From the sequence record LC680885.1: a stretch of 64,000 bases of DNA. One strand, 5' to 3'. The position numbers and the translations under genes are program-made. The notes under the pieces are model-generated. The model had not been told where the DNA came from and did not search any database. It worked only from the letters and a program-made list of their open reading frames with translations. Position 1 is the stretch's first letter; each line of letters starts with the position of its first letter. This stretch comes from Staphylococcus phage S6. Of the stretch, positions 3,001-42,748 are shown piece after piece.

Positions 3001-4603
3001 TAGATTCTTTATTTAATTGCATTCTAGTTTTAGTTAAACTAGTTTTAGCTTCTTTATCATTAAATAATTTATCTAGGAGAATATTAAATGGATCATTCGG
3101 GTCATTTGATTTAACCTGATCAAGTTCATTGCTTTTATTAATATTTTTAGAAATAATTTCTTTAATCTTAGATGTAGCTTTATTTTTGTTATCTTCATTA
3201 CTGAAAAGATCAATTCCCATTTCAGAAGCTATATTTTCAAATTCTTTAGTAAAACTAGATTCTTTGATAGTTTTATTAACTTTTTCTTCTATATCATCTT
3301 TAATAGATTTAGAAGTTTTAAATGAACCTGAATCATAGTCATAATGAATTTCTTGACCATCTTCTGAAGTTAAACCAACTATTTTGGATAAATAACCAGG
3401 TATAACTGTATTAAGTGTATTATGAGTTTCCACATCAAAAGCAACTTTTTGATGTCTATCTTTTCTGTTAGCAGTTGATATACCACCAGTTACACTATCA
3501 AATATTTTGTCAATTAATTTACTTTTACCTGATTTGACATCCTCAAGAAGATCATCTCTTCTTTTGTCTCTTTTTCGTTGTTTAGTACCATCTTTATCAT
3601 CTTTACCAAAAGGATTAATTTTTTTATTGGCAAATTTACCGACTGCTTTTTCTATAAAAGTATTTTCATTATTAAGGAAATCAAAAGCTTTACCTTTAGC
3701 TACATCGACTAAACCTAAACTTTTGATACCTTGTTTTTTAGAACCAATAACTTCTTTAAGTAATTCAGTTCCTTGTTTTTTAATAAAGTCTTTAGCTTTA
3801 TCTTTGAATCCTTCTTCTTGAGATCCTTCTAATATACTTGATAAAGTTATATTAGATAAGAATAGATCTTCTAATGAATTACTATTTTTAATTTCAGATA
3901 TATTTTTAATTTTAGTATTCTGTCTAATAGCATTACTAGTTTGAATTAAACCATTTAAATTCTGGAACATACTTTCTCTAATACTATCATTAGCTTCTCT
4001 CATTAAGTTAAGATTATCAATCATAGAAGTAAAACCAGTAGTATTTATTTGAGAAAGATTAGATACAGAAGAAGTTAATAGAGCTGTAGATTTAGCAGAA
4101 GAACCGCCATCATTAATAACTGTTGTGGAAGATACTATTCTAGATTTATTATCATCTTCTTCGTCAAAGTCATCAAATTCAAAATCACCATCTAAAGAAT
4201 CATCTGTGTCAGAATCCATATCTGAAAAACTATCGTCAAAACTAAAATCTTCAAAATCACCACCGACATCCATGCCCATGTTATTGAAGTTTTTTAATGA
4301 TTCTTTATCTTGGATTGTTTCTCCAGTTTTAAATGTATTCTTAGTAGATTCTAAAGCTTCTTTAGATAAATCTTTAGTAGATTCACTTATCTTTTGTAAT
4401 TGTTTTTTCTTTTTATTCTTTAATTCTTTGACAGCCTTTAATGGATTATTCTGATCCATCATACGCTTCATGTCATTAGATTTCATTTTATTTAAATTTT
4501 TATTAAATTCAATATCTATATATTTTCTAGAAGATTTAGAGGAGGAGTTATTTCTAAACTCCTTCTCTATCTTGCTAGTGTTAAATTTCTTATCTCTAGC
4601 CAA
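1..4603 (-). CDS. Giant virion/tail-associated cell-wall hydrolase protein, paralog A (C-terminus beyond left window edge); lysozyme-like domain + C-terminal NlpC/P60 endopeptidase domain
   Basis: Minus frame open from 4603 to position 1 (no minus ORF fragments listed there; listed + ORFs 360-4454 are low-complexity antisense). TTG start at 4601-4603 with AGGAGGTGG 9 nt upstream. My reverse-complement translation shows 'GVLGNFAHESGMKADRVQGD..GYGIGIAQWDNTRRQGLMKYAKEKG' (about 560-960, phage tail lysozyme-like) and 'AKYSQPNRQGANSFDCSSLIARAY...HVTMYIGGG' (1-330, NlpC/P60 Cys/His). Shares the 'HPIESLKHPIKTLGS' block and a Gly/Ala/Lys-rich region with the downstream 1992-aa paralog. Confidence 0.6.
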   Translation of the reverse strand, partial: MARDKKFNTSKIEKEFRNNSSSKSSRKYIDIEFNKNLNKMKSNDMKRMMDQNNPLKAVKELKNKKKKQLQKISESTKDLSKEALESTKNTFKTGETIQDKESLKNFNNMGMDVGGDFEDFSFDDSFSDMDSDTDDSLDGDFEFDDFDEEDDNKSRIVSSTTVINDGGSSAKSTALLTSSVSNLSQINTTGFTSMIDNLNLMREANDSIRESMFQNLNGLIQTSNAIRQNTKIKNISEIKNSNSLEDLFLSNITLSSILEGSQEEGFKDKAKDFIKKQGTELLKEVIGSKKQGIKSLGLVDVAKGKAFDFLNNENTFIEKAVGKFANKKINPFGKDDKDGTKQRKRDKRRDDLLEDVKSGKSKLIDKIFDSVTGGISTANRKDRHQKVAFDVETHNTLNTVIPGYLSKIVGLTSEDGQEIHYDYDSGSFKTSKSIKDDIEEKVNKTIKESSFTKEFENIASEMGIDLFSNEDNKNKATSKIKEIISKNINKSNELDQVKSNDPNDPFNILLDKLFNDKEAKTSLTKTRMQLNKESKDIKKKLSSSSINALNDENKRKGTSKNITSKLNNENGSGILSTNKDAVYDNINFNIVNKDISEIKQIVSRINSKIPEKRYNSNSSDSNSSGIISDVNQPNDNVSREIDPREQTLNKNTSTASSNTNQSRKSDNTRNDNIKDEDNRSTIIPNEQTLENGQAKSSDNSDDKDFADKVGEAQDFIEGNKHLKEKFDKYKNKGKDLVKEKIGKLSNTKLGGKVTSMGGSLTGKFAASGALMAGAGSRLKGKLKARAAKMAAGKGAKKAVGKGLLKAGAKVGARVGVNAIPGIGQIASLALAGPDIIRTITHPIESLKHPIKTLGSIIGFNDHPSKTKKEQEKLDSTQPGGENFAVDPSVDTKMGGSVDKSSIIGGFIKDNPLLASTPLLGLAGMGLYKSIVKPAFGLGMNMVQKTTGMAKSFGDQTDMAMEEKSSGFGGLIKKVVGGASMLMMAPLALAGKGLSNLTGMTSMLLQGGTGLIKSGWGWLKDKFSSHEEEMGNMSKEMTEASKEELSSYQEGIESEASDRAKKEIAEMNGMSDKANKDAKKQVEESAGKTRDDIKKDVDGAMKNSPLSVMGRIGHQMNKLMPKNLMSKLKKAPKKLAETMMRMSPFYSLLSKKKKKKSKLDINEPGGEVVNTIGDWFDKLGGMMNDIMAGFMAGSGSSSSSSASSSGSDAAGIEGEGAEKIWNFLKDKGLSDEQTAGVLGNFAHESGMKADRVQGDAKFDEAKANSAISGYGIGIAQWDNTRRQGLMKYAKEKGKKWSDLDLQLDYLWKELSGSESAALSHLKTTKTVEQAAASWVSKYERAGVPALGSRISSGNAFIKQFSGSGKKSTKKKGGGAGGGGAGSVIADTNDISKFSNMVSSTSGKNKSSRRTGIIKGNPPIQRGGGGGGSQKAKIDKAVAWAKKQVGAKYSQPNRQGANSFDCSSLIARAYVKAGLDMDKNATTHSFWNGDTPFEKIKAKSPKDLKPGDIILCDNIEHVTMYIGGGKQVEANGVDGV

Positions 4604-11437: not shown

Positions 11438-12355
11438 TTATCTAAAACGTTTTTTGTATTCTTCTTCATATTTAGCATTGACATCTGAAACTTTAATATC
11501 TTTACCATCATCTGTTTTAAAGTTATCTTTATCAATTTCTTCACCTTTAATTACTTCTTTATCTTCATTTTCTACTTTAGCTACCATAGCAATATGAGGT
11601 GGTACAAATGATGCTTGTTTAACTGTTTCCATTTTAGCATTATGAATACGACCTTTAATTAATTTACGAGAGAAATGTACATTTTTCATAGTTAATGTTT
11701 TACCTTTAACTAATGCATTTTCTCTAAGTGCATCAATTTCATTAATAATATCACTTAATTCTTTTTTAGAATATCTATTATCTTCTAGATTTGTTACTAA
11801 GTCATTAATAAGTTCTTCTTTAGTATAAGATTTCTCACTGAATTTTTTAACATTTTTCTTTCTACTAGTCATTTTCTTTTTACCAACCTTCTGATTTGAT
11901 TTAGTTTTTGTACTTTGTTTCTTTTCTTTTAATACTGGATTCTTAACTTCTTCTTTAGTCTCTTCTTGCTTAGTTTCTACTTTATCCTCTTCTTGTTTAG
12001 TTTCTTTTTGCTTAATTTCTTTTGCTTTCTCTGGATTTAAACCTGAAGCTGTTACAGTTACTTTATCATAAGAACTTTCTGTTGGAATATCCTTAAGATT
12101 AATTTCAACATCTTTAAGTTCATCTGAATTGATGAAAATTTCTTTTTTATCATAATTAATCTTAATAACATCATCATCTTCAGGAATTAAAACTAAATTC
12201 TTTCTGTCATATTTCTCTGGAATAGTTTCGATATCAAATGTAATTGTATCTCCTTCATATCCTTGTTCTTCTGATAATTTAATCTTAGCTGACTCTAATA
12301 CAGTTAAATCCTCTTTTTCTTTTGTAACTTTCTTTCTTGTAATTGCCATATCCAA
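11438..12355 (-). CDS. hypothetical Lys/Glu-rich protein (possible virion/assembly protein)
   Basis: 305-aa ORF. Highly charged 'KQKETKQEEDKVETKQEETKEEVK' region. First gene after the divergent promoter region. Confidence 0.5.
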   Translation of the reverse strand: MDMAITRKKVTKEKEDLTVLESAKIKLSEEQGYEGDTITFDIETIPEKYDRKNLVLIPEDDDVIKINYDKKEIFINSDELKDVEINLKDIPTESSYDKVTVTASGLNPEKAKEIKQKETKQEEDKVETKQEETKEEVKNPVLKEKKQSTKTKSNQKVGKKKMTSRKKNVKKFSEKSYTKEELINDLVTNLEDNRYSKKELSDIINEIDALRENALVKGKTLTMKNVHFSRKLIKGRIHNAKMETVKQASFVPPHIAMVAKVENEDKEVIKGEEIDKDNFKTDDGKDIKVSDVNAKYEEEYKKRFR

Positions 12356-12395
12356 ATCTCTCCTTATATAAAATAATTTGAAGCTAATATTCTTA

Positions 12396-12441
12396 CTAAC
12401 TTCATTAAAATAATATATATTTATATTATTAATTGAAGTTT
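12396..12441. promoter_or_regulatory. Palindromic divergent promoter element carrying the conserved AT-rich motif on both strands
   Basis: 'aacttcattaaaataatatatatttatattattaattgaagtt' is an imperfect 43-bp palindrome. The + strand copy 12413-12441 ('atatatttatattattaattgaag') and the rc of 12396-12421 ('aaatatatattattttaatgaagtt') both match the motif found upstream of 8 other operons. Sits in the 330-bp AT-rich gap between the minus- and plus-strand blocks. Confidence 0.45.
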
Positions 12442-12701
12442 ATAAATTTTTATTATTAGAGTTTTTCTATGATCCAGAGTATTAATATATTTTATTAATT
12501 AAAAATATATTTATTAATAATATTTATATTAATATTAATTATTAAATTTATAATTACTTACTAATATAAGTAATATATTAATACAAAATTTTAAAAATTT
12601 ATAAATAAAAATTTTATAAAATCTGAATAACCAATTTATATTAATTAAAAAATCAATGACGTTTAAAAATATAATAAATTTGATTGAGGTGTATTAAGAT
12701 A

Positions 12702-13910
12702 ATGGGTTTAAATAAAAAACAAGAAGAAGGATTAAGATTAGCTAAAGAATGGTATAATAATGATAGTCATAGACCTTTTGTATTATCAGGTATTGCTGGA
12801 AGTGGGAAGTCATTTACAATGACTAAAATAATTGATTCTTTAGGCTTACATGAAGCTAATGTTTCTTTTATAGCATATACAGGAATGGCTGCAGGTGTAT
12901 TAGTCAAAAGAGGTTTGAATGCTACTACAATCCATAGAACTATTTATAATCATTTTATGGATGAAAAAACTGGTAAAGTGAATTTTAGATTAAAAGATGA
13001 ATTACCGAGAGATATTAAATTAATAATTATAGACGAAGTTTCAATGGTTCCTATGAAGATGATAGAAGAAATTCAAAGTTTTGGAATACCTATACTATGT
13101 TTAGGAGATCCAGCACAGCTTAAAAGTTTATCAGGAAGAAATGAATTACTAGATAAACCTGATATATTCTTAGATGAACCAGTAAGACAATCATTAGATA
13201 ATCCTATACTTGTTGCAGCTAATTTAGTTCGTAATGGTAAAGATTTAGAATATGGTTCATATGGAGATAATGTACATGTAATTACTTCAGATGAATTGAC
13301 TTTAGATATGTATCAGAATGCAGATCAAGTTCTAATGAGCTATAATAGAACAGTGGATCAATTTAATAGATTCTATAGAAGTCAAATATTAAATATTGAT
13401 GTTGAAAATAATCCATTTCCTAAAGAAGATGAAAAAATTATTTGTCTAAAGAATAATTGGTCTAAAGTAGTTAATGAAGGTAATATAACTCAGTACTTAA
13501 CTAATGGTTTGATTGGTAATATAACTAGATCTGGTAAAAAGAAACCTATGACTAAATCAACTCAGTTGGATTTTAAACCTAAAGGTTTTGAATTAGAAAG
13601 GTTTAGTAGAATATATTACGATGATTTAATTTTTGAAGGTACTATTGGAGATCAACAAGAACTATTTGATTTAAGATTCAAAGATAATGAAATTAATAAA
13701 ATATTTAAGAAACGATATGTAACTGAAATGTCTGATTTTGGTATGAAAGTAAATCCATTTAATTTTGCATACGGAATTACTATTCATAAATCTCAAGGTT
13801 CTGAATTTGATAATGTAATAGTATTTAGTGAAAATATGAGTAAAGATAGATTCAAGTCATTATATACAGCTATTACTCGTGCTAAAAAGAATTTGATTGT
13901 AGTTCAATAA
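12702..13910 (+). CDS. SF1B DNA helicase, Dda/RecD-like
   Basis: Walker A 'GIAGSGKSF', Walker B 'LIIIDEVSMV', C-terminal 'ITIHKSQGSEFDNVIV' (UvrD_C_2-like). ATG at 12702 with GAGGTG 9 nt upstream (track start 12684 is an upstream TTG). Confidence 0.75.
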   Translation: MGLNKKQEEGLRLAKEWYNNDSHRPFVLSGIAGSGKSFTMTKIIDSLGLHEANVSFIAYTGMAAGVLVKRGLNATTIHRTIYNHFMDEKTGKVNFRLKDELPRDIKLIIIDEVSMVPMKMIEEIQSFGIPILCLGDPAQLKSLSGRNELLDKPDIFLDEPVRQSLDNPILVAANLVRNGKDLEYGSYGDNVHVITSDELTLDMYQNADQVLMSYNRTVDQFNRFYRSQILNIDVENNPFPKEDEKIICLKNNWSKVVNEGNITQYLTNGLIGNITRSGKKKPMTKSTQLDFKPKGFELERFSRIYYDDLIFEGTIGDQQELFDLRFKDNEINKIFKKRYVTEMSDFGMKVNPFNFAYGITIHKSQGSEFDNVIVFSENMSKDRFKSLYTAITRAKKNLIVVQ

Positions 13911-13930
13911 TATGTATAAGGATGATATAA

Positions 13931-14182
13931 GTGGATAATAATAATGTAAGTAGTAAAATCAATAAAAATCAATTACAAACAGCAATGAATAATATGTCTA
14001 AAAATATAAATGGTATAAGTAGAAAGATAACAGGACAAGATAAAATTGATGAAATTAATAAACTTAAAAGAGAAAATGAAGAATTACATCGTTTTCTCTT
14101 TAAGATCTATCAAGATGATGAATTTGATAGGAAAGAATTGAAGAAAATTATATTTAAAGATGTAAATAAAAAATTTAAATAA
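13931..14182 (+). CDS. small coiled-coil protein, member 1 of an 8-gene array (ends ..KDVNKKFK)
   Basis: 83 aa, heptad-rich. Tightly packed with the following genes. Confidence 0.5.
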   Translation: MDNNNVSSKINKNQLQTAMNNMSKNINGISRKITGQDKIDEINKLKRENEELHRFLFKIYQDDEFDRKELKKIIFKDVNKKFK

Positions 14183-14184
14183 GG

Positions 14185-14391
14185 GTGATTAATTTGAATT
14201 CAGATATCCGAATAGATAGAAGTGGCCTTTATATACAATCTAATGAGAAGCAGATGAAAGGACAAATTAAAATTATAGAAGAAAACAAAAAATTAAAAGA
14301 TTTTATTATTGATATTAAAAATAATGGTGGCTATGATGAAAAGGAATTAAATAAAATAGTAAATGAAATTGTTAAGGAGAATTTAAAATAA
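14185..14391 (+). CDS. small coiled-coil protein (ends ..IVKENLK)
   Basis: 68 aa. Stop overlaps the next start (TAATG). Confidence 0.45.
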   Translation: MINLNSDIRIDRSGLYIQSNEKQMKGQIKIIEENKKLKDFIIDIKNNGGYDEKELNKIVNEIVKENLK

Positions 14392-14846
14392 TGTCAAATG
14401 AAAAAGTTATTGCTAAAGAATTAACGTTAGACCAGAAAATTAAAATGTTAGAACCAAAGATAGATGAAGAGACTTATTTAAGACCATTAAGTCAAGTGGA
14501 TGAGTCTTTTTATAATGAAGTTATTAAAGATGAATTAATTGAGAAAATTAATAATGAAGACCATAAATTTGAAAATAATTTCGATTATCATATATTTAAA
14601 AATGGACCAATACAATTACTAGGTTTCATTTATAAATTTGAATTTAATGAAAATGCAGTAAATGTTAAAAAAGAAAAACCTAATGAAGGTAATATCTATT
14701 TTGGAAGCTTTATATTAAATAATAAAAATAAAAAAGATGATTCAATATATTTACTTAGAGTTGATAGCAGCTTAGTTGATTTTAGTCTATTAGAAAATAA
14801 AAAATATAAAGAATTTGGTAGAAACTTATTTAAATTAATTAAATAG
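14391..14846 (+). CDS. hypothetical protein
   Basis: 151 aa. Translationally coupled to the neighbouring small genes. Confidence 0.5.
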   Translation: MSNEKVIAKELTLDQKIKMLEPKIDEETYLRPLSQVDESFYNEVIKDELIEKINNEDHKFENNFDYHIFKNGPIQLLGFIYKFEFNENAVNVKKEKPNEGNIYFGSFILNNKNKKDDSIYLLRVDSSLVDFSLLENKKYKEFGRNLFKLIK

Positions 14847-14857
14847 GAGTGATATAA

Positions 14858-15136
14858 ATGGATAAAGAAATCGAAGATTTAGCAGGAAAAATAAATAATC
14901 TAGAAATTGACCTTAAAGGGATGAATTACAGATTATCTAATGATAAACAAGTTATTGATTTTGAAATAAATAAAATTAATGAATATATTAAATTTTTACA
15001 TGAAGAAAATCAAAGCATCAAAAAAGAAAATATGTTGTTAAAAGAAGCAATAGTGTCTATTTCTAAACATACAGAATTTAAGAATGATTATATAAATAAA
15101 CTGTCTAAAGAAATTGTTAAAGAAAATTTTAAATAA
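14858..15136 (+). CDS. small coiled-coil protein (ends ..IVKENFK)
   Basis: 92 aa. ATG with AGGAG 9 nt upstream. Confidence 0.55.
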   Translation: MDKEIEDLAGKINNLEIDLKGMNYRLSNDKQVIDFEINKINEYIKFLHEENQSIKKENMLLKEAIVSISKHTEFKNDYINKLSKEIVKENFK

Positions 15137-15156
15137 TAAAGAGATGTGATTTTATT

Positions 15157-15432
15157 TTGAATAATGAAAAAAGTTTAATTAAGCGTATGGAAGATTTAGA
15201 AGAACGTACTAGAATGAATGAAATTAAATTAAATACTATGAAAGATAATTATCATTATATAAATGACATTATAGGCACATTAATTAATAGAATAGAAAAT
15301 TCTAATCAAACTAATGAAAAGAAATTAGATGAAATAAGATTAGAGTTAGTCCGTCTTTCTAACGAATTAAATTCACATTCTGAAGTAACTAAAAAGTATC
15401 TAAAGAATTTTATCAAAGATAATCTTAAATAA
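15157..15432 (+). CDS. small coiled-coil protein (ends ..FIKDNLK)
   Basis: 91 aa. TTG start in the track; an ATG follows shortly after. Confidence 0.45.
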   Translation: MNNEKSLIKRMEDLEERTRMNEIKLNTMKDNYHYINDIIGTLINRIENSNQTNEKKLDEIRLELVRLSNELNSHSEVTKKYLKNFIKDNLK

Positions 15433-15445
15433 AGGAATGAAGTGT

Positions 15446-15724
15446 ATGAAGACTATTAAAAGAATAATTGGTTCAGAAGAATTTATCAATACGGTAAAGA
15501 AAACTATAGCTAGAACTAAGAAAGCAGAAGAAAAATTTTATGATTTAAATAATAGAGTTGATAAAGCTTTATCTTTAGCTAGTAGAGTTGTTGAAGATAA
15601 TAAAGAAAAAGAAAGACAAATTAAAGAGCTAAAAGAAGCTTTATCTAAAGAAAAAATTAATAACAGAAGCATAAAATCCCGATATAATAGATTATTATAT
15701 AAAAATGGAAATGGAGGGAAATAA
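15446..15724 (+). CDS. small coiled-coil basic protein
   Basis: ATG at 15446 with AAAGGA 9 nt upstream (track start 15437 is too close to the RBS). Confidence 0.5.
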   Translation: MKTIKRIIGSEEFINTVKKTIARTKKAEEKFYDLNNRVDKALSLASRVVEDNKEKERQIKELKEALSKEKINNRSIKSRYNRLLYKNGNGGK

Positions 15725-15729
15725 TAATT

Positions 15730-15957
15730 ATGAACTCAAATATTAATTTTAATGATAATGGATCATCTATGGATGAACTATATTCAAGAATGCAACTTAG
15801 AGCCGCTAAACAAGTAGAAAAAGATATATTGGGAGATAATGAAAAAGATTCCCTAGAAAAAGAAGTAAAAGAACTTAGAGAACTTGTTCTTGAAGTAGCT
15901 AAAAAGTATGATGTTAAAGAAATAAAAGAATATCTAGTTAGAAAAAATATGAAATAG
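15730..15957 (+). CDS. small coiled-coil protein (ends ..LVRKNMK)
   Basis: 75 aa. Confidence 0.45.
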   Translation: MNSNINFNDNGSSMDELYSRMQLRAAKQVEKDILGDNEKDSLEKEVKELRELVLEVAKKYDVKEIKEYLVRKNMK

Positions 15958-15982
15958 TGTTTAAGAAAAGAGTTGAATAAAA

Positions 15983-16174
15983 TTGGTTGAAAATGATTTA
16001 GATATCTTTAAAGCAATTGAAAAAGCAACTAATAATATCTTAGATAAAAATGAAAAACTAAAAAGTGAGAATTTAGAACTTAAAGAATTGATATTAGATA
16101 TTTCTAAAGAATATAATATAAAAGATAAAAGAATAACTGAAATAAAAGTTGATCTAGCAAAAAATAAGAGGTAA
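15983..16174 (+). CDS. small coiled-coil protein
   Basis: 63 aa on the same strand as the array. The overlapping minus ORF 15961-16251 is Leu/Ile-rich low complexity. TTG start, so uncertain. Confidence 0.35.
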   Translation: MVENDLDIFKAIEKATNNILDKNEKLKSENLELKELILDISKEYNIKDKRITEIKVDLAKNKR

Positions 16175-16197
16175 TGACAAATTAATGTCATTACCTC
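16168..16197. terminator. Bidirectional hairpin terminator (12-bp stem 'gaggtaatgaca'/'tgtcattacctc')
   Basis: Perfect inverted repeat between convergent genes 15983-16174 (+) and 16211-18439 (-). Followed by 'aattatactgc', which is shared with the hairpin at 33746. Confidence 0.6.
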
Positions 16198-16210
16198 AAT
16201 TATACTGCTT

Positions 16211-18439
16211 TTAGTCATCATATTTATCTTTATATTCATAATAACTATCAAATTGAACTTCTAAACCTGAGAAAGCTGAAATGAATCCCATTCTACCTTC
16301 CATATTGATATTTTCAATATCTTTAAAATCAACATCTGGTTTACGATAATTGAAATTCTTATTTTTGTCTATAAATATTCTAATTCTATTTTCATTTTTA
16401 ATAATCTTGATATACTTGTTATTAATGTCTAATGGAACATGATTAGTTAAAAATAATTGTTTTTCTGATTCATCTTGGAATATTTCTTTAGGTTTTCCAA
16501 ATACTTTATCAATTTCATAGAAACCAGTTTTCATTATACGGTCAGGATCTTTCATTACATCTCCATCATTTAGATCAAAGTAAGGAACATCCCAATTTTC
16601 TTGTTGAGAAGCTATCCAAAGCATGTAACCTGAATTGAGTTGAGTGTTATAATCAAATACGATTCCTGCTCCACCAGTTTTATTTTTATTAATTACTTTA
16701 AATGTCATAATATAATTTTTAGGGAATTTAAAGTTTTGACTATACACATAATTTAATGCATCATCATCGAATTTAGTTGTTCCATCTATGAAGCTGATAT
16801 ATCCATAATTACCTAATGACTGTTTAGATAAAGTTTTATTATAAAATCCTGTATAAGTTTGAGTTTCTACAGGGAATGTACCATATGATCTTAATGCAAC
16901 TATCATAGGATTAAAGTATATTCCTGATCTACTCTCATCATAGAAATAATCAGAACCATCTGGATTTTTAAGTGAATAATTATACTCCAACTCAACATTA
17001 TACCAATCTTCTTTAGTTACGATAAATGTATTATCGAATTCTTCATGACTAATTCCAGCTATTTCAAATTCATCTAAACTAACTTGAATTATTTCATTTG
17101 GATCAACGTCATCAACAAAATTTGTTAATTTGACTTCTATTTCCATTCTCTTAATATTTTTCATATTGTACATCATATGTTTAAGATATGATTTTTGACC
17201 TTGAGTATTATAATTTTTATTATTTGAAGGGAATATATTTTCTACTTTTTTAACTTTACCTGTATTTGATGTTAATGTGATATCATAAACTAACTTAGCT
17301 GTAGGATGATTATTATCTTTAAAGTTAGTTGAATATCCCATATTAAAAGCAAAGAAATCATAATTTAATAAACGTTTAATATTCATTCTAGGATTTTCAT
17401 TTTCATCATCTAAAGTTATTTTAACAAATGATGCAGAATTTTCATCTTCTTTATCAGATTTACTTAAAATATCTCCTTTAACTTCATATAAACCGGTTTC
17501 TTGATTAAAACTTACTGAAGATAATCTTGTTGATTCAAGATTAGAATGACTTACATCTTCATCATTAGCTTTTCTTAAATCAAATATAGCTGTAGGTGCT
17601 TTAAATTGATAGTTCTCTGTAGCATTAATTATATTAAAACCTTTTCGATCTGTTATTTTTAATTTAGATGTACCATTTTGTAAAGGTGCAAATAAATATT
17701 TCTCTCCTGGTTTAAAATACATTTTACCTTGAAATTTACGTGAAAAACCTTTTTTGTAAAATAGATGTGGTAGAGTTTTTAAACCATCGTTATTAAGTGT
17801 AAATGGTTCTACTAAATCTTTATTATCTGTATCAGGTCTATAGAATTTATGCTCATGAACTTCATGTCTTTCTCTTAGATATCTATCAGAAGTGATATTT
17901 TCTAATTTATCTTCAAAATCAGTTTCAGGTACAAACGGTATAATTCTAGGATCGTTATAACCCGGAGTAACTCTACCGGATTTTTCTTCAGTACTTTTCA
18001 TCATGTGTTTAAAAATAGGCTTGGGATTATTTTCAGTGCCTAATATTTCATTTTCTTCATTAATAATCTTATTTAAATCATTAATGACAGTCTCTGGGAA
18101 AATTTTTACAGTATCTGTATTAAATTGATCTACTGTTTGCATATCATTAACAAAAAGTAAAAGATACCAAAGATCAGTAGTTCCATATAGTTCATTAGAT
18201 AGATATTCAGGCCGATAGTGATATGATTTTGATAAGTCATAATCTATTAAATCTCTTTTAAGTACATTTTCATATTTTTTTAGTAATGGTAAACTAAAGA
18301 CAGCTTGTTTTTCAAATAAATACCATTCTGATATATTATTAAGTAATATTTTATTCGTCTTGGAGTATTCTATTTCATCAGACATTTCAGGTACATCATT
18401 TCTACCCATATTGTTATTTCCTACGTCACGAATAAGCAA
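16211..18439 (-). CDS. hypothetical large protein (lone minus-strand gene; beta-rich C-terminal region, possible virion/receptor-binding-type protein)
   Basis: 742-aa ORF. C-terminal 'GGAGIVFDYNTQLNSGYMLWI...GRMGFISAFSGLEVQF' resembles a lectin or jelly-roll fold only weakly. Confidence 0.5.
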   Translation of the reverse strand: MLIRDVGNNNMGRNDVPEMSDEIEYSKTNKILLNNISEWYLFEKQAVFSLPLLKKYENVLKRDLIDYDLSKSYHYRPEYLSNELYGTTDLWYLLLFVNDMQTVDQFNTDTVKIFPETVINDLNKIINEENEILGTENNPKPIFKHMMKSTEEKSGRVTPGYNDPRIIPFVPETDFEDKLENITSDRYLRERHEVHEHKFYRPDTDNKDLVEPFTLNNDGLKTLPHLFYKKGFSRKFQGKMYFKPGEKYLFAPLQNGTSKLKITDRKGFNIINATENYQFKAPTAIFDLRKANDEDVSHSNLESTRLSSVSFNQETGLYEVKGDILSKSDKEDENSASFVKITLDDENENPRMNIKRLLNYDFFAFNMGYSTNFKDNNHPTAKLVYDITLTSNTGKVKKVENIFPSNNKNYNTQGQKSYLKHMMYNMKNIKRMEIEVKLTNFVDDVDPNEIIQVSLDEFEIAGISHEEFDNTFIVTKEDWYNVELEYNYSLKNPDGSDYFYDESRSGIYFNPMIVALRSYGTFPVETQTYTGFYNKTLSKQSLGNYGYISFIDGTTKFDDDALNYVYSQNFKFPKNYIMTFKVINKNKTGGAGIVFDYNTQLNSGYMLWIASQQENWDVPYFDLNDGDVMKDPDRIMKTGFYEIDKVFGKPKEIFQDESEKQLFLTNHVPLDINNKYIKIIKNENRIRIFIDKNKNFNYRKPDVDFKDIENINMEGRMGFISAFSGLEVQFDSYYEYKDKYDD

Positions 18440-18534: not shown

Positions 18535-18560
18535 TTAAATATATATTATTTTAATGAGAT
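18535..18560 (+). promoter_or_regulatory. Conserved promoter-like motif copy 1 ('ttaaatatatattattttaatgagat')
   Basis: Matches the recurring TTAAATATATATTATAAAAATGAG consensus. Lies 58 nt upstream of the 18618 start. Confidence 0.45.
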
Positions 18561-18617: not shown

Positions 18618-20168
18618 TTGGATATGGCAAAAGTAAAATACTCACAAACAAAATTATTGGTAAGAGGAGCATTTAGATCAGATGAAATTATCAACGTAGT
18701 TGGTGATGGCGGAATTGGTAAAACACAAATGATGAGAGATATTGCAGAAGAAGATAATATGAACTTCATTACTATCGCTGCAAATAACCTTAAAGAAGGG
18801 GAATTATCTTTACCAATGTTATCACAAAAAGATAATGAAGTTATCTATGCTCCAATGGATAAAATTAAGTTAGCTAATAGTCTTTTTGAGAGATATAAAG
18901 AGTATCAAAGAGAAGGTGGAAAACAATATTCACGTAAAGACCTTTCTTTAAAATCTGTTGATGAATTAAAAGAAATTTATGTGAAATTGACTGGTAAAGA
19001 TGTTGTTGATTATTATGAGGATACTCATGAAAACTATGTTAATAAAGTATTTAACAAAGCTAGAGTTAAAAATGTTAAATATAGTAAAAATGATTTAATG
19101 AAAAAATCATTTAATGAATTAAATGAAATCTTTGTAGAATTAACTGGTAAAGAATTAAGAGATAAAATTGGTAAAGGTTTCTATATCAAAGAAATTTTAG
19201 AAGCAGTTCCAAGACCTTATACTCTATTATTTATTGACGAAATTGGACGTACAGACCAACAAGTACAATCAGAGTTAATGAACTTCTTATTAGAACGTCA
19301 AGTAAATGGTTATCATTTACCACCTAACGTTAAGATTGCATTAGCACAAAACCCATCTTCAGACATGCCAGGATTTGAAGACTCAGAATACGCAGCAACT
19401 TCTATGGATAACGCAGTAAGTTCTCGTATTACATTTGTACACATGGTTCCTGATATTGAAAGTTGGGTAGACTTTGCTACTAAATATAAAGATGGTTCAG
19501 AAAAGCAAAATATTCATCCATCTATTGTTGAGTTCGTAACTGAAAAAGAAAGTACTGAATATTTATTCAGACCTCATAAAGAAGCTGGTAAAGACTTCAA
19601 TGATACTAACCCACGTTCTTGGGAAATGATTTCTAATATGTTATATGTATTAGAAGAAGATGATTTATTTAAATTCTCTAATAGTGAAGAAGAGAAACGT
19701 AAGAAGAAAGATACTTTACAATTCTTCACTGAAGGTAAAATTAATAGTGATTTAGCAAACTTATTTGTTAAATTCTATATTGAAAAACAAGCTAAATTAC
19801 CTCGTCCAAGTGATATTTTATTTGAATATGATAAAGGTAAAATGGTTCCTCGTAAAGAATTAGCTAAACAACACATTGAAGCTATTGAAAGTCAATCAAC
19901 TATTAGACAATTAACATTGAAAACTTCAATGATTAACTATCTTAAAAATAATCCTGATTTAGCTGAAGAACAAGTTATTCAAATTGCTGTAGAAGCTTTA
20001 TTATTAGGTAAAGTTGAAACTAATGCTACACCAATTAGATTAATTTCTAGACTTTCAGAATCTACTGAAGAGTCAGACCAAGAATTATATGAGAAATTCA
20101 CTGATAATGAATTATACAGTGATAAAGCATTTGCATTATACGAACAAATGGTAGGAAGCTTAGGATAA
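18618..20168 (+). CDS. AAA+ ATPase, MoxR-like (AAA_5-type)
   Basis: Walker A 'GDGGIGKTQ', Walker B 'LLFIDEIGRT', sensor 'IALAQNPSS'. An insertion of about 110 aa lies between Walker A and B. AGGAGAG RBS. Confidence 0.65.
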   Translation: MDMAKVKYSQTKLLVRGAFRSDEIINVVGDGGIGKTQMMRDIAEEDNMNFITIAANNLKEGELSLPMLSQKDNEVIYAPMDKIKLANSLFERYKEYQREGGKQYSRKDLSLKSVDELKEIYVKLTGKDVVDYYEDTHENYVNKVFNKARVKNVKYSKNDLMKKSFNELNEIFVELTGKELRDKIGKGFYIKEILEAVPRPYTLLFIDEIGRTDQQVQSELMNFLLERQVNGYHLPPNVKIALAQNPSSDMPGFEDSEYAATSMDNAVSSRITFVHMVPDIESWVDFATKYKDGSEKQNIHPSIVEFVTEKESTEYLFRPHKEAGKDFNDTNPRSWEMISNMLYVLEEDDLFKFSNSEEEKRKKKDTLQFFTEGKINSDLANLFVKFYIEKQAKLPRPSDILFEYDKGKMVPRKELAKQHIEAIESQSTIRQLTLKTSMINYLKNNPDLAEEQVIQIAVEALLLGKVETNATPIRLISRLSESTEESDQELYEKFTDNELYSDKAFALYEQMVGSLG

Positions 20169-20232: not shown

Positions 20233-22170
20233 GTGAATTTGATAATGAATGATAATAGAACAATTAAAGTAATTAGAAAAGAAATATTAGACGAAGTACA
20301 AGAATCGATTGTAAATGATAGACAGTTAGATAAAAAGAAATTAACGAAGCTTGGAGAAGAATTAATTGAAAATAGTATTTTTGTGTTGTATACTTCTGAT
20401 GTTGATATTTATGGAGTAATGTTAATGACTGTAGAAAAGATCATTGACATTGAAATTCCAGAACCAACTTTCTCAGTATTTGATGAAGAAAAAGGTTATA
20501 AGATTGGTATTAATCCAGTGTTATTAGCCACTATGGTTGATAAAGATGAAGAAATAGTTTCTATGTTCCTACATGAAGTTATCCATGTAGCTCATGGACA
20601 TTTAATTGAATTTAGAATGTTAAGAAATAAAGAAGATTCTCAATTAAAAATGTTAAGTCACTTAGGAATGGATTTATCAGTATTTGAAATTGAAGAAGAC
20701 TTCCAATTAGGTAAACGTGAAGCTAATACAAGTAAAAAAGTTTTACCTGAAATTGCACCTAATGTAGATAAGATTGAAAAGTATATTCAAGATAAATTTA
20801 ATAAAACAAATTTTAAATTAAATCATAATGATGCTTCTCACTATTATATTAAACAATTAGTAGATATCTACAAAGAAAATAATGAAGAAGATATGTTTGA
20901 TTCTATGGGTGAATCTATGCAAAATATGATTCAAGAATCTTCAGAAAAACAGAATGAACGTGATGAAGATTCATTGAATGAAGAAAATGAAATGTTGAAA
21001 GACATGTTAGAAGATTTAAAAGACATTGAAGATAAAAATGATTTATCTAGTAAATTAGAAGATAATAAACTAGAAGAAAACAAAGTTAATGATTTTGAAA
21101 ATAAAGCTCAAGATTATATGAATAAATTAGATGAAATGAATCAAAATGATGAAGAGAATAGTAATGATACTCAAAATCAGAAAAATATAGAAGAGAAAAT
21201 GAATGATTTACTAGATTCAATGAGAAATAATACTTCAGATAATAAATTTAATAGTAAAGATAATAATGATTTATCTGATAAAATACAAGAAATGAAATCA
21301 GATATATTAAATCAAATGATTCAGAATAATATGCAACAGGGTTCTCAAGGTATGCAAGGTGAAGATGGTGGAATGCAAGACGGACAAAATGTTTCTGATA
21401 TGGGAAGTAACATGACTATGTCATCTTCTTTAGATGGAAATTCTAAATATGCAGATAAATTTGATTCCAATCCTCTTGAAGGAGATGCTACAGAGGAAAG
21501 AATGAAAGACCAATTGTATGATTTATTAGAAAGTGCTAGTAGTAATAGTCGTGGTGATACACCTAATCATATTAAAGAACAAATTGAAATTCTAAAACGT
21601 AAACCTAAGATTAAATGGCAAGATTATCTTAAAGCTAAAGTAGGTAAAAAACGTTCTTCTAGTACGAAAACTATTTTAAGAAGAAATAGAAGACAACCTT
21701 ATCGTAGTGATGTACGTGGAACTTTACCTGGTAGAAAATTAGGTAAAGTATTTGCGGCTATTGACACTTCAGGTTCAATGGGTAGAAATGAAATTGAAGA
21801 AATTATTGCTGAATTGTATTATATTAGTAGTGATATGAAAATTGATTTAGTTTTATTATTCTTTTCAACTGGTGTTGAAGAAGTAGTTGAAGTAAACAGA
21901 CCAAATCAATTTAATGATTATGTAATGGGTCGTGGCGGAACTTACTTCAGTTCTGTATTTGATTTCTTAAATGAAACTGATAACAAACGTAAATATTCAG
22001 TATCAAAAGATGATACTCTATTATTCTTCTCAGATGGTTTTGGAGAACCTGAGGTGGAATACGGTGTATTAACTGATGTTGTTTGGGTTATTACTGAAGA
22101 TGAAAATAATCTTTCAGTTAGAGATCCAAAAGGTAAAGTACTAAAATTAGAAATAGATAATAAAAGATAA
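20233..22170 (+). CDS. vWA-domain protein with N-terminal HExxH metallopeptidase-like motif (DUF2201-like architecture)
   Basis: 'FLHEVIHVAHGHL' (HExxH..H) near the N-terminus. Long Asp/Glu/Asn-rich coiled middle. C-terminal vWA with MIDAS 'AIDTSGSMG'. Directly downstream of the MoxR-like ATPase. Confidence 0.6.
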   Translation: MNLIMNDNRTIKVIRKEILDEVQESIVNDRQLDKKKLTKLGEELIENSIFVLYTSDVDIYGVMLMTVEKIIDIEIPEPTFSVFDEEKGYKIGINPVLLATMVDKDEEIVSMFLHEVIHVAHGHLIEFRMLRNKEDSQLKMLSHLGMDLSVFEIEEDFQLGKREANTSKKVLPEIAPNVDKIEKYIQDKFNKTNFKLNHNDASHYYIKQLVDIYKENNEEDMFDSMGESMQNMIQESSEKQNERDEDSLNEENEMLKDMLEDLKDIEDKNDLSSKLEDNKLEENKVNDFENKAQDYMNKLDEMNQNDEENSNDTQNQKNIEEKMNDLLDSMRNNTSDNKFNSKDNNDLSDKIQEMKSDILNQMIQNNMQQGSQGMQGEDGGMQDGQNVSDMGSNMTMSSSLDGNSKYADKFDSNPLEGDATEERMKDQLYDLLESASSNSRGDTPNHIKEQIEILKRKPKIKWQDYLKAKVGKKRSSSTKTILRRNRRQPYRSDVRGTLPGRKLGKVFAAIDTSGSMGRNEIEEIIAELYYISSDMKIDLVLLFFSTGVEEVVEVNRPNQFNDYVMGRGGTYFSSVFDFLNETDNKRKYSVSKDDTLLFFSDGFGEPEVEYGVLTDVVWVITEDENNLSVRDPKGKVLKLEIDNKR

Positions 22171-22247: not shown

Positions 22248-24311
22248 ATGTTAAAAAAGACTACAGAAAATGAATTAGAAAAGTTATTCAATGTCACTAT
22301 TTATAATGAAGAATTTTCTAATTTAAAACCTATGTATAATAGAAAAGATACTGAAACTAGAACTAAATTAAATGACAATCAAAATTCTAGAGTGTATGAG
22401 AATTTAATAAATTTCATTAATTATTCTAAAGCAGGAATGACACACATGTTTTTAACTCGTTCTAATAAATATAGAGATAAATATATTGATTTTCTAAGAA
22501 ATAGACTTGGTAAGGAAGATTTATTAGATGAGGTTGAATTTGAATATACAGATAGATATTTCAGATCTTTCATATATAATATAGATATAATTAGAAGAAG
22601 TGAATATCAAACACATCAATCTATAGAAAATGACTCTAAATTAGAAGATTCATTCTTATTAAGAAATGGAAATACAAATATAGATAGCTTTAAAACGGAT
22701 AATGGTTTATCTATAGAATTTTTAGATAAAGATGTAAAGAAAGATTTTTTAGATAAGAACAAACAAATTAGTTTAGAATCTTTGCTAGCTATCGATACGA
22801 TGGTGTCTAATTCATTAAGAAAGAAATGGTTAAAATCAATTGAAAAAGAAGAATTACCTGATATGAATATTATATTTAAAGAAGTTCCAGAAGTAGTAAT
22901 TATACTAGCAAACAGTATATATGAAAGATCAAATTTCAAATTATCATATGTAGATAGAAGTGTTATTAATATACACGCAGACGTTTCAGATGTTTTTGAA
23001 TCAATACTAACTTTAACTTCTAATTTTAATTATAAATTAATATTAGATTTAATAGATGAAGATTACTTAAGTAAAAATTTAAATCATTTCAAAGCTTCTG
23101 AATTTTCTTTATCTGACAATAATGACATTGATAATATATTTAGTATAATCGGAATTATTAAAAAACAAACGGACGTTATTAATAAATTTATAGAAAAAAG
23201 CAAATCAGATAATCTAGAAGACAATATTAATTTAATAATTAAAGAAAATGAAATAGATGATGACTTTGGAGAAATATTAAAAGTTTATATTGATAGTGTA
23301 TTATCTAAATTTAGAGAATATATTGAAGATGATACCAATATATTAAAAGATTCATCTAAGGTTTTAATAGGTGAAAATCTATTTGATTTCTTTATGAAAT
23401 TAGATGATCTCGAAATTTTAATGATTAGAAATATATACAGAGTTTTAGATAGTAATGTATATAATCCTGTAATCAGAGATGTTAAAGAATCACAAGAAAA
23501 AGTTATGAATGGAATAGTAGATTATTTTAAAAATAATACTAAAAAATTATCTTTAGATTTATCTAATATCGATATAAGTAGATTGAAAGATAGTTCTTTC
23601 ACATTATTAAACGATTTCATAACAAATGGAGAAGTAAGTAATCTTCGTATGAAACCTAATGAAGCTAATATAGAGTATTTCTATAAATTAAGTGTGGATA
23701 AAGAATTAAACCGTGACATATTAAATAGTAATATACAATATATGAAACAGGAATTATTAAAAGGTTTTAATGATGATTCTAAAATGACTTCGAATGCTAT
23801 TATTGAATTTGATAATTTTAATATTAATTTTGCTGTAATAGAAAATAATTCATATAATAATGAAATAGAAATAATGATGCAAGGAGTTACTTTTAAGAAA
23901 AAATTAACTGATGAGGATATTGCTACTATCTTTTTATATTCACATAAAGAAGTTAGTATATATCAAGACAAAAAATTAGTTATCATGGATAGAAATTATT
24001 TCTCTAGAAGAGGTATAAATAAATTTATAAATAATATGAATAATGTCTTCACTGATTTAGATGGAGAAAGTTTATCTAAATATATGTCTTTAATTTATAA
24101 TTTATTATCTTTATCAGATAATTCTTTTGAGGAAGATAAAGCAATTTATAATACTCTATATTACAATAAATTTGAATATATTAATAAAGAAAATGAGTTA
24201 AAAGTTGATAGTTATATTAATATGATTAATAATAAAGATGTAACAGATGATTTTAAAAAGAAATTTAAAAAGGTAAGATCTAAGTATTTAGTTTCTAGAA
24301 TATTTATTTAA
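22248..24311 (+). CDS. hypothetical protein
   Basis: 687 aa. AAAGGAG RBS. No motif recognised. Confidence 0.55.
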   Translation: MLKKTTENELEKLFNVTIYNEEFSNLKPMYNRKDTETRTKLNDNQNSRVYENLINFINYSKAGMTHMFLTRSNKYRDKYIDFLRNRLGKEDLLDEVEFEYTDRYFRSFIYNIDIIRRSEYQTHQSIENDSKLEDSFLLRNGNTNIDSFKTDNGLSIEFLDKDVKKDFLDKNKQISLESLLAIDTMVSNSLRKKWLKSIEKEELPDMNIIFKEVPEVVIILANSIYERSNFKLSYVDRSVINIHADVSDVFESILTLTSNFNYKLILDLIDEDYLSKNLNHFKASEFSLSDNNDIDNIFSIIGIIKKQTDVINKFIEKSKSDNLEDNINLIIKENEIDDDFGEILKVYIDSVLSKFREYIEDDTNILKDSSKVLIGENLFDFFMKLDDLEILMIRNIYRVLDSNVYNPVIRDVKESQEKVMNGIVDYFKNNTKKLSLDLSNIDISRLKDSSFTLLNDFITNGEVSNLRMKPNEANIEYFYKLSVDKELNRDILNSNIQYMKQELLKGFNDDSKMTSNAIIEFDNFNINFAVIENNSYNNEIEIMMQGVTFKKKLTDEDIATIFLYSHKEVSIYQDKKLVIMDRNYFSRRGINKFINNMNNVFTDLDGESLSKYMSLIYNLLSLSDNSFEEDKAIYNTLYYNKFEYINKENELKVDSYINMINNKDVTDDFKKKFKKVRSKYLVSRIFI

Positions 24312-24333
24312 ATATATATTATATAATTGAGTT
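24308..24333 (+). promoter_or_regulatory. Conserved promoter-like motif copy 2 ('ttaaatatatattatataattgag')
   Basis: Overlaps the stop codon of the 22248-24311 gene. Followed by a hairpin 'aattgagttgg..caactcaatt'. Confidence 0.4.
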
Positions 24334-28394: not shown

Positions 28395-28691
28395 TTATTT
28401 CATGCTGTCTAATTCAGCTAATTTTAATTTAGCTTTAGTTGCATATTTTTGACGAATTATGTCACGCCATTTTTTACGAGCACGAGCAGCTTTTTGATAT
28501 TTAAAATAGATTGGATCTTGAGCTTCTTTAGCTGCAACTAATGCTAATTGGTTTAATCTACGTTTACGTTTAGTACGTTCATCTAAACGCATGATATTTT
28601 GTTCACGTAAAAGAGCTTCATCAGTTGCTTGCATAATTTGCTCTTCTAGTGGAGTAATGTTATTTTTCATAATGGAAGATCTTCCTTTCAA
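28395..28691 (-). CDS. small basic protein (lone minus-strand gene)
   Basis: 98 aa. Lys/Arg-rich 'KYQKAARARKKWRDIIRQKYATKAKLKLAE'. Own AGGAAG RBS. Isolated between hairpin terminators. Possible nucleic-acid binder. Confidence 0.45.
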   Translation of the reverse strand: MKGRSSIMKNNITPLEEQIMQATDEALLREQNIMRLDERTKRKRRLNQLALVAAKEAQDPIYFKYQKAARARKKWRDIIRQKYATKAKLKLAELDSMK

Positions 28692-36891: not shown

Positions 36892-36917
36892 TTAAATATA
36901 TATTATAAAAATGAGAT
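36892..36917 (+). promoter_or_regulatory. Conserved promoter-like motif copy 5 ('ttaaatatatattataaaaatgagat') followed by hairpin 36913-36943
   Basis: Exact consensus. A 13-bp hairpin 'gagataatgaatt..aattcattatctc' overlaps its 3' end. Confidence 0.45.
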
Positions 36918-37598: not shown

Positions 37599-38219
37599 AT
37601 GGATGTAAATGAATATATAAATAATCATGATTTTTATAGAGTTGGGAATGACGGTCAAGTATTTGTATTTAATAAAGATATATCAAAAGATGAATTAAAT
37701 TCTAAAATATTTACTAAATTATTTTCATGCGAAAATATAGGAATTATACTGTCTGAATGTGGTCATTATATAATAGATGGAAATAATATATTCTTAAGAA
37801 ATAATGATAAAATATTATTAGTCGAAAATATGACTATTGATATAAGTTTATTTAAAGATGATCTAATTGAATTAAATTTTATATTAAATATTGAATCTGA
37901 TCTTTATTCAAAAATTGGTCCTTTTGAAAAAGATAATCATGATCCTTTTTATTATTATAATACTATTATTCAAATAGAAAATAAAGATAACTTTCAACAT
38001 GAATTAATTTCTCATATAACAAATCATTTTAATAAAATGAGTGATGTTGATTTAATGCTTTTAACTACTAAAAATGAAATTAGATTTAATAAAGATTATA
38101 GTATTAATAAAAAATGTATTGATTTTAAATGTAATTTTAATGAAATTTATAAAATATTTAATAAATTAGAAGATGAAAAAGAAATTAAGAAATATATAGT
38201 AAGAGAAAATTTTAAATAA
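37599..38219 (+). CDS. paralog-family protein (tail ..LEDEKEIKKYIVRENFK)
   Basis: 206 aa. AAGGAG RBS. Confidence 0.55.
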   Translation: MDVNEYINNHDFYRVGNDGQVFVFNKDISKDELNSKIFTKLFSCENIGIILSECGHYIIDGNNIFLRNNDKILLVENMTIDISLFKDDLIELNFILNIESDLYSKIGPFEKDNHDPFYYYNTIIQIENKDNFQHELISHITNHFNKMSDVDLMLLTTKNEIRFNKDYSINKKCIDFKCNFNEIYKIFNKLEDEKEIKKYIVRENFK

Positions 38220-38232
38220 GGATAGAATAAAT

Positions 38233-38796: not shown

Positions 38797-38813
38797 AATA
38801 AGGAGGATTAAAT

Positions 38814-39437: not shown

Positions 39438-39438
39438 A

Positions 39439-40050: not shown

Positions 40051-40107
40051 TTTAATTAACTTTCTTTTATATTAATAAATACAATGAAAGAGAGTTGAAT
40101 ATAATAA

Positions 40108-41891: not shown

Positions 41892-41917
41892 ATAAATATA
41901 TATTATAAAAATGTTAT
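41892..41917 (+). promoter_or_regulatory. Conserved promoter-like motif copy 6 ('ataaatatatattataaaaatgttat') + hairpin 'tcccaatacta..tagtattggga'
   Basis: Begins 2 nt after the stop of the 41489 gene. Hairpin at about 41917-41945. AAAGGAG RBS of the 41971 gene follows. Confidence 0.45.
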
Positions 41918-42747: not shown

Positions 42748-42748
42748 T

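Follow-up and report, generated by a model that had tools for sequence, protein, structure and literature searches.

Most genes of jumbo phages are unannotated ORFans, and tandem runs of tiny, fast-evolving and clade-restricted genes, gained in some relatives and lost in others, are familiar from the gene families of phiKZ and 201phi2-1, the hyperplastic regions of T4 and the host-takeover module of SPO1. A short terminal peptide carried by unrelated proteins, in turn, implies a single receptor, as with the cargo-loading peptides of encapsulins and the capsid-targeting sequence of T4, while the ssrA tag and the MuA-type basic tags of ClpX require the extreme C-terminus and have a basic and hydrophobic ending. 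We examined a stretch of 64,000 nucleotides from Staphylococcus phage S6 (LC680885.1), which as a whole is called the window here, and within it an array of eight small open reading frames (ORFs) at 13931-16174 on the + strand, named P1 to P8 in order of position, that directly follows the gene for a RecD/Dda-like helicase. Five of the eight (P1, P2, P4, P5 and P7) end in a short peptide, hereafter the tail, and in the closely related phage PALS_2 the same peptide closes about 37 proteins, or ~13% of the proteome. By its distribution the tail reads as a module common to dissimilar proteins of 63-395 amino acids (aa), and not as the remnant of a family.

The locus resembles each of these systems in part. 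As in the clusters of phiKZ/201phi2-1, T4 and SPO1, the genes are tandem, tiny, restricted to one clade and subject to gain and loss, but here a C-terminal peptide crosses family boundaries, no consensus early promoter was found for the array, and there is no similarity in sequence. Encapsulin cargo peptides and the T4 targeting sequence share with the tail the principle of a short terminal peptide on unrelated proteins; the carriers described here differ in being undetected in virions and in lying on the non-structural strand, their sequence is unrelated, and no shell is known. The ssrA and MuA-type tags have no sequence identity with the tail, whose conserved helical region is longer and which is encoded in the gene instead of being added co-translationally, although the tail could share the two-part layout of the SspB and ClpX sites of ssrA, consisting of an upstream helix and terminal residues.

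Over 12684-16300 the window is 98% identical to the Staphylococcus jumbo phage PALS_2 and 82-98% identical to 8 further MarsHill-like Staphylococcus jumbo phages; PALS_2 and these eight are the nine phages, or relatives, referred to below. MarsHill-like phages are related to AR9 and PBS1 and possess split multisubunit RNA polymerases. Judged by these identities, the window, which has a G+C content of 20-27% for most of its length, comes from a MarsHill/PALS_2-type Staphylococcus jumbo phage.

The tail was scored with a position-specific scoring matrix (PSSM) built from the C-terminal 7 aa of 20 large tail-bearing proteins, p being the rank of a score among 7-mers of unrelated proteins. Within the array the tail closes P1 (13931-14182, 83 aa, ..IIFKDVNKKFK, p=0.0017), P2 (14185-14391, 65-68 aa, ..NEIVKENLK, p=2e-4), P4 (14858-15136, 92 aa, ..SKEIVKENFK, p=8e-5), P5 (15157-15432, 91 aa, with the tail-like ending ..KNFIKDNLK, p=0.006) and P7 (15730-15957, 75 aa). 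The last 16 aa of P7, YDVKEIKEYLVRKNMK, are the best match in the array to the tail of the large proteins and give a 16-aa PSSM score of 22.7, which falls inside the leave-one-out range of the large set itself. The matrix found no match in P3 (14391-14846, 151 aa), in P6 (15437-15724, 92-95 aa, a basic helical protein ending ..YKNGNGGK, p=0.022 for its final ..KNGNGGK) or in P8 (15983-16174, 63 aa), where the ending ..IKVDLAKNKR is a degenerate tail (p=0.11 for ..LAKNKR). The consensus of the array tails is ..(I/V)(V/I)K-x-N-(F/L/M)-K, that of the large proteins, at their extreme C-terminus, is ..(L/I/K)(V/I)(K/R)-x-(N/G/T)-F-(K/R/I), and among 34 other genes taken as a control just two reach p<0.01, so that the agreement in the array greatly exceeds what chance would give.

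An earlier note, made from the letters of the window, had listed eight ORFs right after the Dda-like helicase, and all eight are found where it placed them, on the + strand, with alternative starts at 14194 for P2 (where TTG is probably used) and at 15437 or 15446 for P6 (probably ATG 15446); the endings that it quoted, IVKENLK, IVKENFK, FIKDNLK and VRKNMK, are literally present. It had given all eight genes the same C-terminus, a description that fits P1, P2, P4, P5 and P7 by the PSSM and does not fit P3, P6 or P8. The ORFs were said to overlap or to lie 2-20 nucleotides (nt) apart; the spacing actually runs from an overlap of 1 nt to a gap of 25 nt, so that the overlap was correct and the upper bound was set too low.

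Counts across the complete assembled PALS_2 genome (287 ORFs) place the tail in a wider setting. The C-termini of 34 of the 287 ORFs reach a PSSM score of at least 9, against 13 of 80,875 internal positions, and at p<0.003 there are 38 tail-ended ORFs where 0.86 would be expected. All carriers in PALS_2, a genome with 224 + and 63 - strand genes, lie on the + strand, opposite the structural genes. We take these counts to show a protein-level motif that is almost exclusively C-terminal and genome-wide. An origin at the level of DNA, with a repeat, promoter or terminator lying in the 3' ends of genes, was considered and excluded: synonymous sites in the tail codons vary, codon usage in the tail equals that of the genome, and ribosome-binding sites are the only elements that recur downstream, from which it follows that the constraint is on the peptide and not on the DNA.

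Read by eye, the tail forms a helix of ~12 residues, capped at its start by T/S/D and at its end by a Schellman-type motif, L-V-K-x-(N/G)-F; FEEITDEKEIKKYLVKNNFK is one example of a tail peptide. The net charge of the tail is about +2 and its extreme end is basic and hydrophobic. The helix is not amphipathic: over the last 14 aa the median helical hydrophobic moment is 0.15, against 0.26 for the proteome, with a mean hydrophobicity of 0.06. Beyond the part of PALS_2 that corresponds to the window, tail genes cluster at 38037-40725, 67518-70643, 75082-77924, 96406-102697, 179512-201951 and 204780 in PALS_2 coordinates, and these include six tandem genes of ~150 aa behind DNA ligase, with products ending ..TEKEYKENKVKENFK.

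The large tail-bearing proteins of the window, ~20 in number and 160-395 aa in length, are encoded on the + strand in blocks at 24384-45941 and end in ..(T/S)(D/E)EKE(I/Y)K..(L/I)VK.(N/G)F(K/R/I). Once the last 22 aa are removed, phmmer joins only 4+2 members of this set; body identity is 0.22, against 0.20 for shuffled sequences, and the identity of the last 16 residues is 0.44. The only other common feature is a weak N-terminal YY..K motif, which is missing from the small proteins. On these comparisons the large 'family' is held together mainly by its tail and is hardly a family. An AlphaFold2 model of one large carrier (38233-38796), made with an alignment of its paralogs, had a predicted local distance difference test score (pLDDT) of 47.6 and was unusable for fold search; the tail is its most confident segment and is modelled as helical. 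Two of the tail-bearing genes, 41971-42747 and 42701-43567 (both +), have an apparent overlap of 47 nt, and the start of the second is probably an internal ATG near 42749 (..NMKNNTKYF), as in PALS_2, where it lies just past the stop of the first. Just before the large blocks, at 22248-24311 (+), is a gene for a protein of 687 aa that carries the annotation 'RNA polymerase omega subunit family' in PALS_2 and ends ..SKYLVSRIFI, a weakly tail-like ending with a leave-one-out score of about 1-2.

When the profile of the small family (A2) was compared with that of the large set (A1) using hhalign, the last 13 columns alone aligned, ending at both C-termini. P7 by itself matches the C-termini of the large set at E=4e-5, again over the tail only. 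Upstream of the tail no small protein aligned with a large one, whether family profiles or single families were compared, and for this reason common descent of the two sets is not shown. The proposal that the small proteins are 'tail-only relatives' of a large paralog family consequently survives in one half, the shared C-terminal peptide, and loses the other, as nothing aligns upstream of it; the profile-profile comparison suggested as its check returns the last 13 columns (E=0.0033, with P7 at E=4e-5) and is weak at the level of the family.

Relationships among the array genes were assessed by hhalign on ortholog alignments, with reversed profiles as the control for composition and periodicity. 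Links were found for P1-P2 (E=4.5e-6), P2-P4 (E=8e-9), P4-P8 (E=6e-6), P2-P8 (E=3.7e-4) and P7-P8 (E=2.6e-4), the best reversed control reaching ~E=0.014. A further copy lies outside the array at 48770-49057 (+), behind a gene for an SbcC-like ATPase; its product of 95 aa ends ..KKEVIKDTFK (tail p=5e-4) and matches profile A2 at E=1.2e-4, end to end over the C-terminal module. Profile similarity thus places P1, P2, P4, P7, P8 and the 48770-49057 gene, the sixth copy, in one fast-evolving paralog family, whose common part is a C-terminal module of ~40 aa with the consensus ..LKxENKELKExIxxIxK......K...KI....VKxNFK. Membership of P5 is marginal, its match to the small-family profile (E=0.003) lying near the range of the reversed controls. 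P6, which occurs in the nine phages only, reaches the same value (E=0.003) with an internal helix alone aligned. P3 is unrelated to its neighbours, having no profile link by hhalign to any other array gene, no Pfam match, and no PDB match in a sequence search.

AlphaFold2 predicts P4 as a helix of 70 residues (3-72), a break of 4 residues and a second helix of 15 residues (77-91), with a mean pLDDT of 88.8. Because the predicted 70-residue helix stands alone, P4 would be expected to form an oligomeric coiled coil. In a crude heptad test P4, P5, P6 and P8 beat their shuffles at p<0.05, P1 and P7 are borderline, and P2 and P3 fail. The earlier description of the whole run as coiled-coil genes is supported in part, by the P4 model and, to a moderate degree, by the heptads. 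A Foldseek search with the P4 model against BFVD and PDB gave no structural match, every hit having E>3.

Rates of nonsynonymous to synonymous substitution (dN/dS, Nei-Gojobori, over the nine phages) are 0.11 for P3, which is strongly conserved, 0.17 for P6, 0.20 for the well-conserved P5, 0.32 for P7, 0.33 for P1, 0.37 for P8, 0.49 for P4 and 0.63 for P2. Since dN/dS is below 1 in all eight, we regard every one of the array ORFs as a real gene; relatives annotate them, with ribosome-binding sites, as hypothetical proteins, and a longer antisense ORF at 15961-16251 is spurious. When the N-terminal part is set against the last 40 codons, dN/dS is 0.62 and 0.16 in P1, 0.90 and 0.46 in P2, and 0.97 and 0.18 in P4. 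These ratios show the constraint to sit in the C-terminal module, with the N-termini of P1, P2 and P4 drifting almost neutrally. Conservation of the array in related phages, of which the earlier note had made a point, is borne out: it is kept in all nine relatives, with 6-8 genes in each, P2 being missing from Machias, AH12 and PB50, and P8 from these three and LY01.

Beyond the nine phages, AR9 and Listeria phage LPJP1 possess the helicase with different genes downstream, and neither has such an array next to it. P3 is the only array gene with an older relative, a protein 41% identical that is encoded on a metagenomic contig in another gene context. From this synteny and from the older relative of P3 we infer that the conserved core is the helicase together with P3, around which the small tail genes appear to have accreted. 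The contig itself (Logan ERR13865851, 3088 bp) carries a metallophosphatase gene and a DUF3920/zincin-like gene adjoining the P3 relative, an arrangement that echoes the AR9 island of zincin-like protease ... helicase, phosphoesterase, and it probably marks an unsequenced AR9-like phage.

Database searches returned little outside this clade. Scans of Pfam, PHROG and PADLOC with the eight ORFs and 12 tail-bearers gave only sub-threshold coiled-coil noise. The best Pfam hits scored 14-16 bits against cut-offs of 27-30, the top one 16.3 against 30, and were to YabA (PF06156) and other named coiled-coil families; YabA and bZIP-type regulators are, like the array proteins, small and helical with leucine-zipper-like stretches, a likeness that at such scores is one of composition only. 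PHROG gave weak matches to a tail chaperone and a tape-measure protein (E 0.013-0.044), which we judge to be coiled-coil noise. A profile search of 5.8 billion proteins retrieved 29 proteins for the small family and 13 for the large, all of them Staphylococcus jumbo-phage proteins or 'hypothetical' proteins of short contigs. A tail consensus of 23 aa, compared by tblastn with 50,697 phage records, hit the nine Staphylococcus jumbo phages only, even with a cut-off as loose as E<=10, at 4-10 places in each, which shows the tail, within the records searched, to be confined to this phage clade. The motif and its families are unmentioned in the accessible genome, proteome and transcriptome papers on PALS2, MarsHill/Madawaska/Machias, SA1 and DC4, and the whole looks like a lineage-specific multigene family, apparently undescribed, with a terminal signature that crosses families.

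The eight ORFs of the array, seven of 63-95 aa and the single gene of 151 aa, fill the space between the stop of the helicase and a convergent hairpin terminator, and the array as a whole is located between structural gene blocks of tape-measure and baseplate genes. The helicase gene (12684-13910, +; the start annotated in relatives is ATG 12702) heads the putative operon and is 99.8% identical to the 'RecD-like helicase' of PALS_2 and Madawaska and 41-42% identical to the 'Dda-like helicase' of AR9 and PBS1. The terminator is a 12-bp hairpin at 16168-16197 that separates the array from a convergent baseplate-wedge gene and is common to both; it is the sole terminator-like site within 12300-16400, and it carries a terminator annotation in MarsHill and Machias. 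Given the tight spacings and the position of this sole terminator-like site at the end of the array, helicase and array look like one operon.

The time at which this operon is transcribed can be approached through the promoters of AR9, whose early consensus is AAATATATATTAT-N6-G and whose virion RNA polymerase (vRNAP) reportedly does not tolerate even one departure from it (PMC5312081). Perfect copies of AAATATATATTAT-N6-G occur at 6 sites in the window, where 0.02 are expected. Five are on the + strand (18537-18556, 24310-24329, 36894-36913, 41894-41913 and 60825-60844), 59-77 nt upstream of genes, and the sites at 24310, 36894 and 41894 have tail-bearing blocks directly behind them. The sixth, at 12403-12422 on the - strand, stands between the helicase gene and the gene preceding it and is directed away from the helicase. 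No perfect early promoter was found for the helicase/array operon, the best + strand site matching at 11/13 positions, 280 nt upstream of the helicase; the AR9-type late promoter AACA-N6-TR has no copy in the intergenic DNA that precedes the helicase and 3 copies in the array, where 5 are expected. In DNA so rich in AT, the short TATATTAT core and the 14-mer with one mismatch are no more frequent than chance would make them, and for early-promoter calls the full 13-mer plus G alone is informative. With relaxed early-type promoters counted genome-wide, 30/37 tail genes have one against 115/187 of the others, a modest link at best. RNA sequencing (RNA-seq) of phage SA1 places the helicase ortholog in the late cluster (PMC9414953).

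Virion proteomes give a consistent negative. Liquid chromatography-tandem mass spectrometry (LC-MS/MS) of SA1 virions identified 52 proteins, none of which comes from the array (ORF159-166) or from the tail-bearing blocks ORF63-69, 171-172 and 179-191 (PMC9096886), a result to be read with the reservation that small Lys-rich proteins give few tryptic peptides. The virion list of DC4 likewise contains no array or tail-bearing proteins. SA1 ORF numbers differ by one between PMC9096886 and PMC9414953, so that the helicase is called ORF158 or ORF159 depending on the paper; the RNA-seq paper numbers its genes 2-260, and expression classes are easily mis-transferred.

We tentatively interpret the tail-bearing array products as coiled-coil proteins that present a shared docking peptide to one common partner, the reading that fits the data best, although we hold it to be possible more than probable. 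The array would have grown by tandem duplication around the older, conserved P3 in the helicase operon, in this lineage only. Five to six of its genes are modular: the N-terminal helix evolves fast, and the C-terminal ~40 aa make up a module under constraint, in which a leucine-zipper-like helix (..ENxxLKxxIxxI..) is followed, after a short break, by a capped helix that closes the protein, L/I-V-K-x-(N/G)-F-K-COOH. This last helix is the peptide that also closes at least 30 accessory proteins with little else in common, many of which are early, and it could be a portable C-terminal signal by which a common partner, from phage or host, recognises or docks its carriers; an external partner is suggested because the tail has stayed conserved and terminal while the rest of its carriers diverged to noise. 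The small proteins, as oligomeric coiled coils, would display several copies of the peptide and could be adaptors or competitors at the site of the large early tail-bearers, probably later in infection; oligomerisation, the common partner, competition and timing are all matters that we infer. A bolder version seems to us rather unlikely. In it, one portable C-terminal 'address' peptide, a capped helix ending V-K-x-N-F-K-COOH, would put ~13% of the proteome, mostly early accessory proteins, under a single receptor (a hub, protease or localisation factor), and the later, oligomeric, tail-only array proteins would compete there, switching the early set off or relocating it.

Several observations weigh against the docking reading. 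The tail does not define the array, being missing from three of its eight genes, and the match between small and large families is weak (E=0.0033, probability 9.6%, 13 columns). Heptad periodicity is modest (z 0.2-2.8). The timing of the array is taken from the neighbouring helicase in one RNA-seq summary that is not per gene, and the orthologous helicase of AR9 belongs to an island that has an early promoter annotated in front of it. Searches of Pfam, PHROG, PADLOC, Foldseek and 5.8 billion sequences returned no homolog of known function. Lastly, the conserved terminal helix could be a purely intramolecular cap. In that event the tail would be an inherited structural element, a capped helix derived from one ancestral gene via duplications and lacking a common partner, and the small genes would be truncated or degenerate paralogs whose functions are individually unrelated or of no importance. 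The Schellman-type cap (L-V-K-x-N/G-F) of a helix that reads as self-contained is indeed a structural motif, and the weak N-terminal YY..K of the large proteins suggests common descent; the almost neutral N-termini of P1, P2 and P4 (dN/dS 0.6-0.97) and the dispensability of P2 and P8 in some phages would also suit such remnants. A helix packed against a body should, however, have diverged along with that body, and body identity is now at shuffle level. The tail is instead the sole segment kept in about 37 proteins of 63-395 aa and varied predicted architecture, always at the extreme C-terminus, and in P4 it follows a single long predicted helix that offers no globular body to cap, which leaves the structural explanation unlikely, though in our view still a serious one.

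The tail might also be a degron for an AAA+ protease of host or phage, a special case of docking in which the carriers would undergo collective, timed turnover, with the small proteins serving as short-lived regulators or as decoys to keep the protease saturated. Such a role would suit a strictly C-terminal motif with a basic and hydrophobic extreme end and a net charge of about +2, borne by non-structural, + strand proteins that are undetected in virions and many of which are encoded behind early promoters; the tail may also resemble the ClpX 'C-motif 2' (MuA ..RRKKAI). The conserved part, at ~13-16 aa and helical, is longer than typical minimal degrons, and in the annotation of PALS_2 we noticed no protease of the Clp or Lon type encoded by the phage; we find turnover improbable as the explanation. 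More doubtful again is the suggestion, made in the earlier note, of small early host-takeover proteins, which would be independent of one another and aimed at different host targets, the tail being incidental. Small size, ORFan status, clade restriction, fast evolution and variable copy number all speak in its favour, as do the annotated early promoter of the AR9 helicase island and the early-like 11/13 motif 280 nt upstream of the helicase. The early timing is nevertheless unsupported: the operon has no consensus early promoter, the perfect intergenic site at 12403-12422 is on the minus strand, the AR9 vRNAP reportedly tolerates no single deviation, and in SA1 the ortholog of the helicase clusters with late genes. 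It counts further against independent targets that the constrained part of these proteins is their shared module and not their variable part.

A role in the virion, whether the tail were a capsid- or virion-targeting peptide or the small proteins were assembly chaperones for tail or baseplate, is very improbable. Jumbo phages are known for paralogous families of head proteins, the array does lie between structural gene blocks behind a helicase that is late in SA1, and PHROG offered its weak matches to a tail chaperone and a tape-measure protein; those matches are coiled-coil noise, however, the array and the tail-bearing blocks are missing from the 52 SA1 virion proteins and from the DC4 list, and the carriers are all on the strand opposite the structural genes. 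We give still less credence to the tail as an amphipathic helix that would direct its carriers to the membrane, as in MinD/FtsA: the C-terminal helix is Lys-rich with Phe near its end, and some variants read ..KKGF(K/R), but its median hydrophobic moment is well under that of the proteome (0.15 vs 0.26) and its mean hydrophobicity is 0.06. One short peptide ties about 37 ORFans of a single clade, this array included, into one question, namely what binds the tail. Were it a signal for docking, localisation or degradation, it would provide a compact, transferable tag for Staphylococcus and would show a large virulent phage coordinating many accessory proteins; were it only a structural remnant, the array would be an ordinary fast-evolving ORFan cluster.

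Some further features of the window concern the early promoters and the virion. The minus-strand site at 12403-12422 would drive 11438-12355(-), a gene that adjoins the tape-measure block, and so hints at early transcription of a gene with structural genes around it. An AAA/MoxR-like ATPase gene at 18618-20168 (+) stands behind a perfect early promoter and belongs to the early class in SA1 RNA-seq, and its product and that of the next gene, 20233-22170 (+), are found in SA1 virions (ORF168 and ORF169); on the strength of the promoter and RNA-seq class on one side and of virion detection on the other, the two form a pair that is transcribed early and nonetheless packaged. Inside the + strand early block lies a small basic ORF on the opposite strand, 28395-28691 (-), whose orthologs are present in virions of DC4 (UFVDC4_00019, 91 aa, isoelectric point 10.2, 24% coverage) and SA1 (ORF173, 10.8 kDa, 36% coverage). 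At the left end, positions 1-4600 of the window have a G+C content of 27-36% and a strongly negative GC skew, and + strand ORFs there look spurious; this segment matches a large minus-strand gene upstream of the PALS_2 tape-measure gene, which extends beyond the window.

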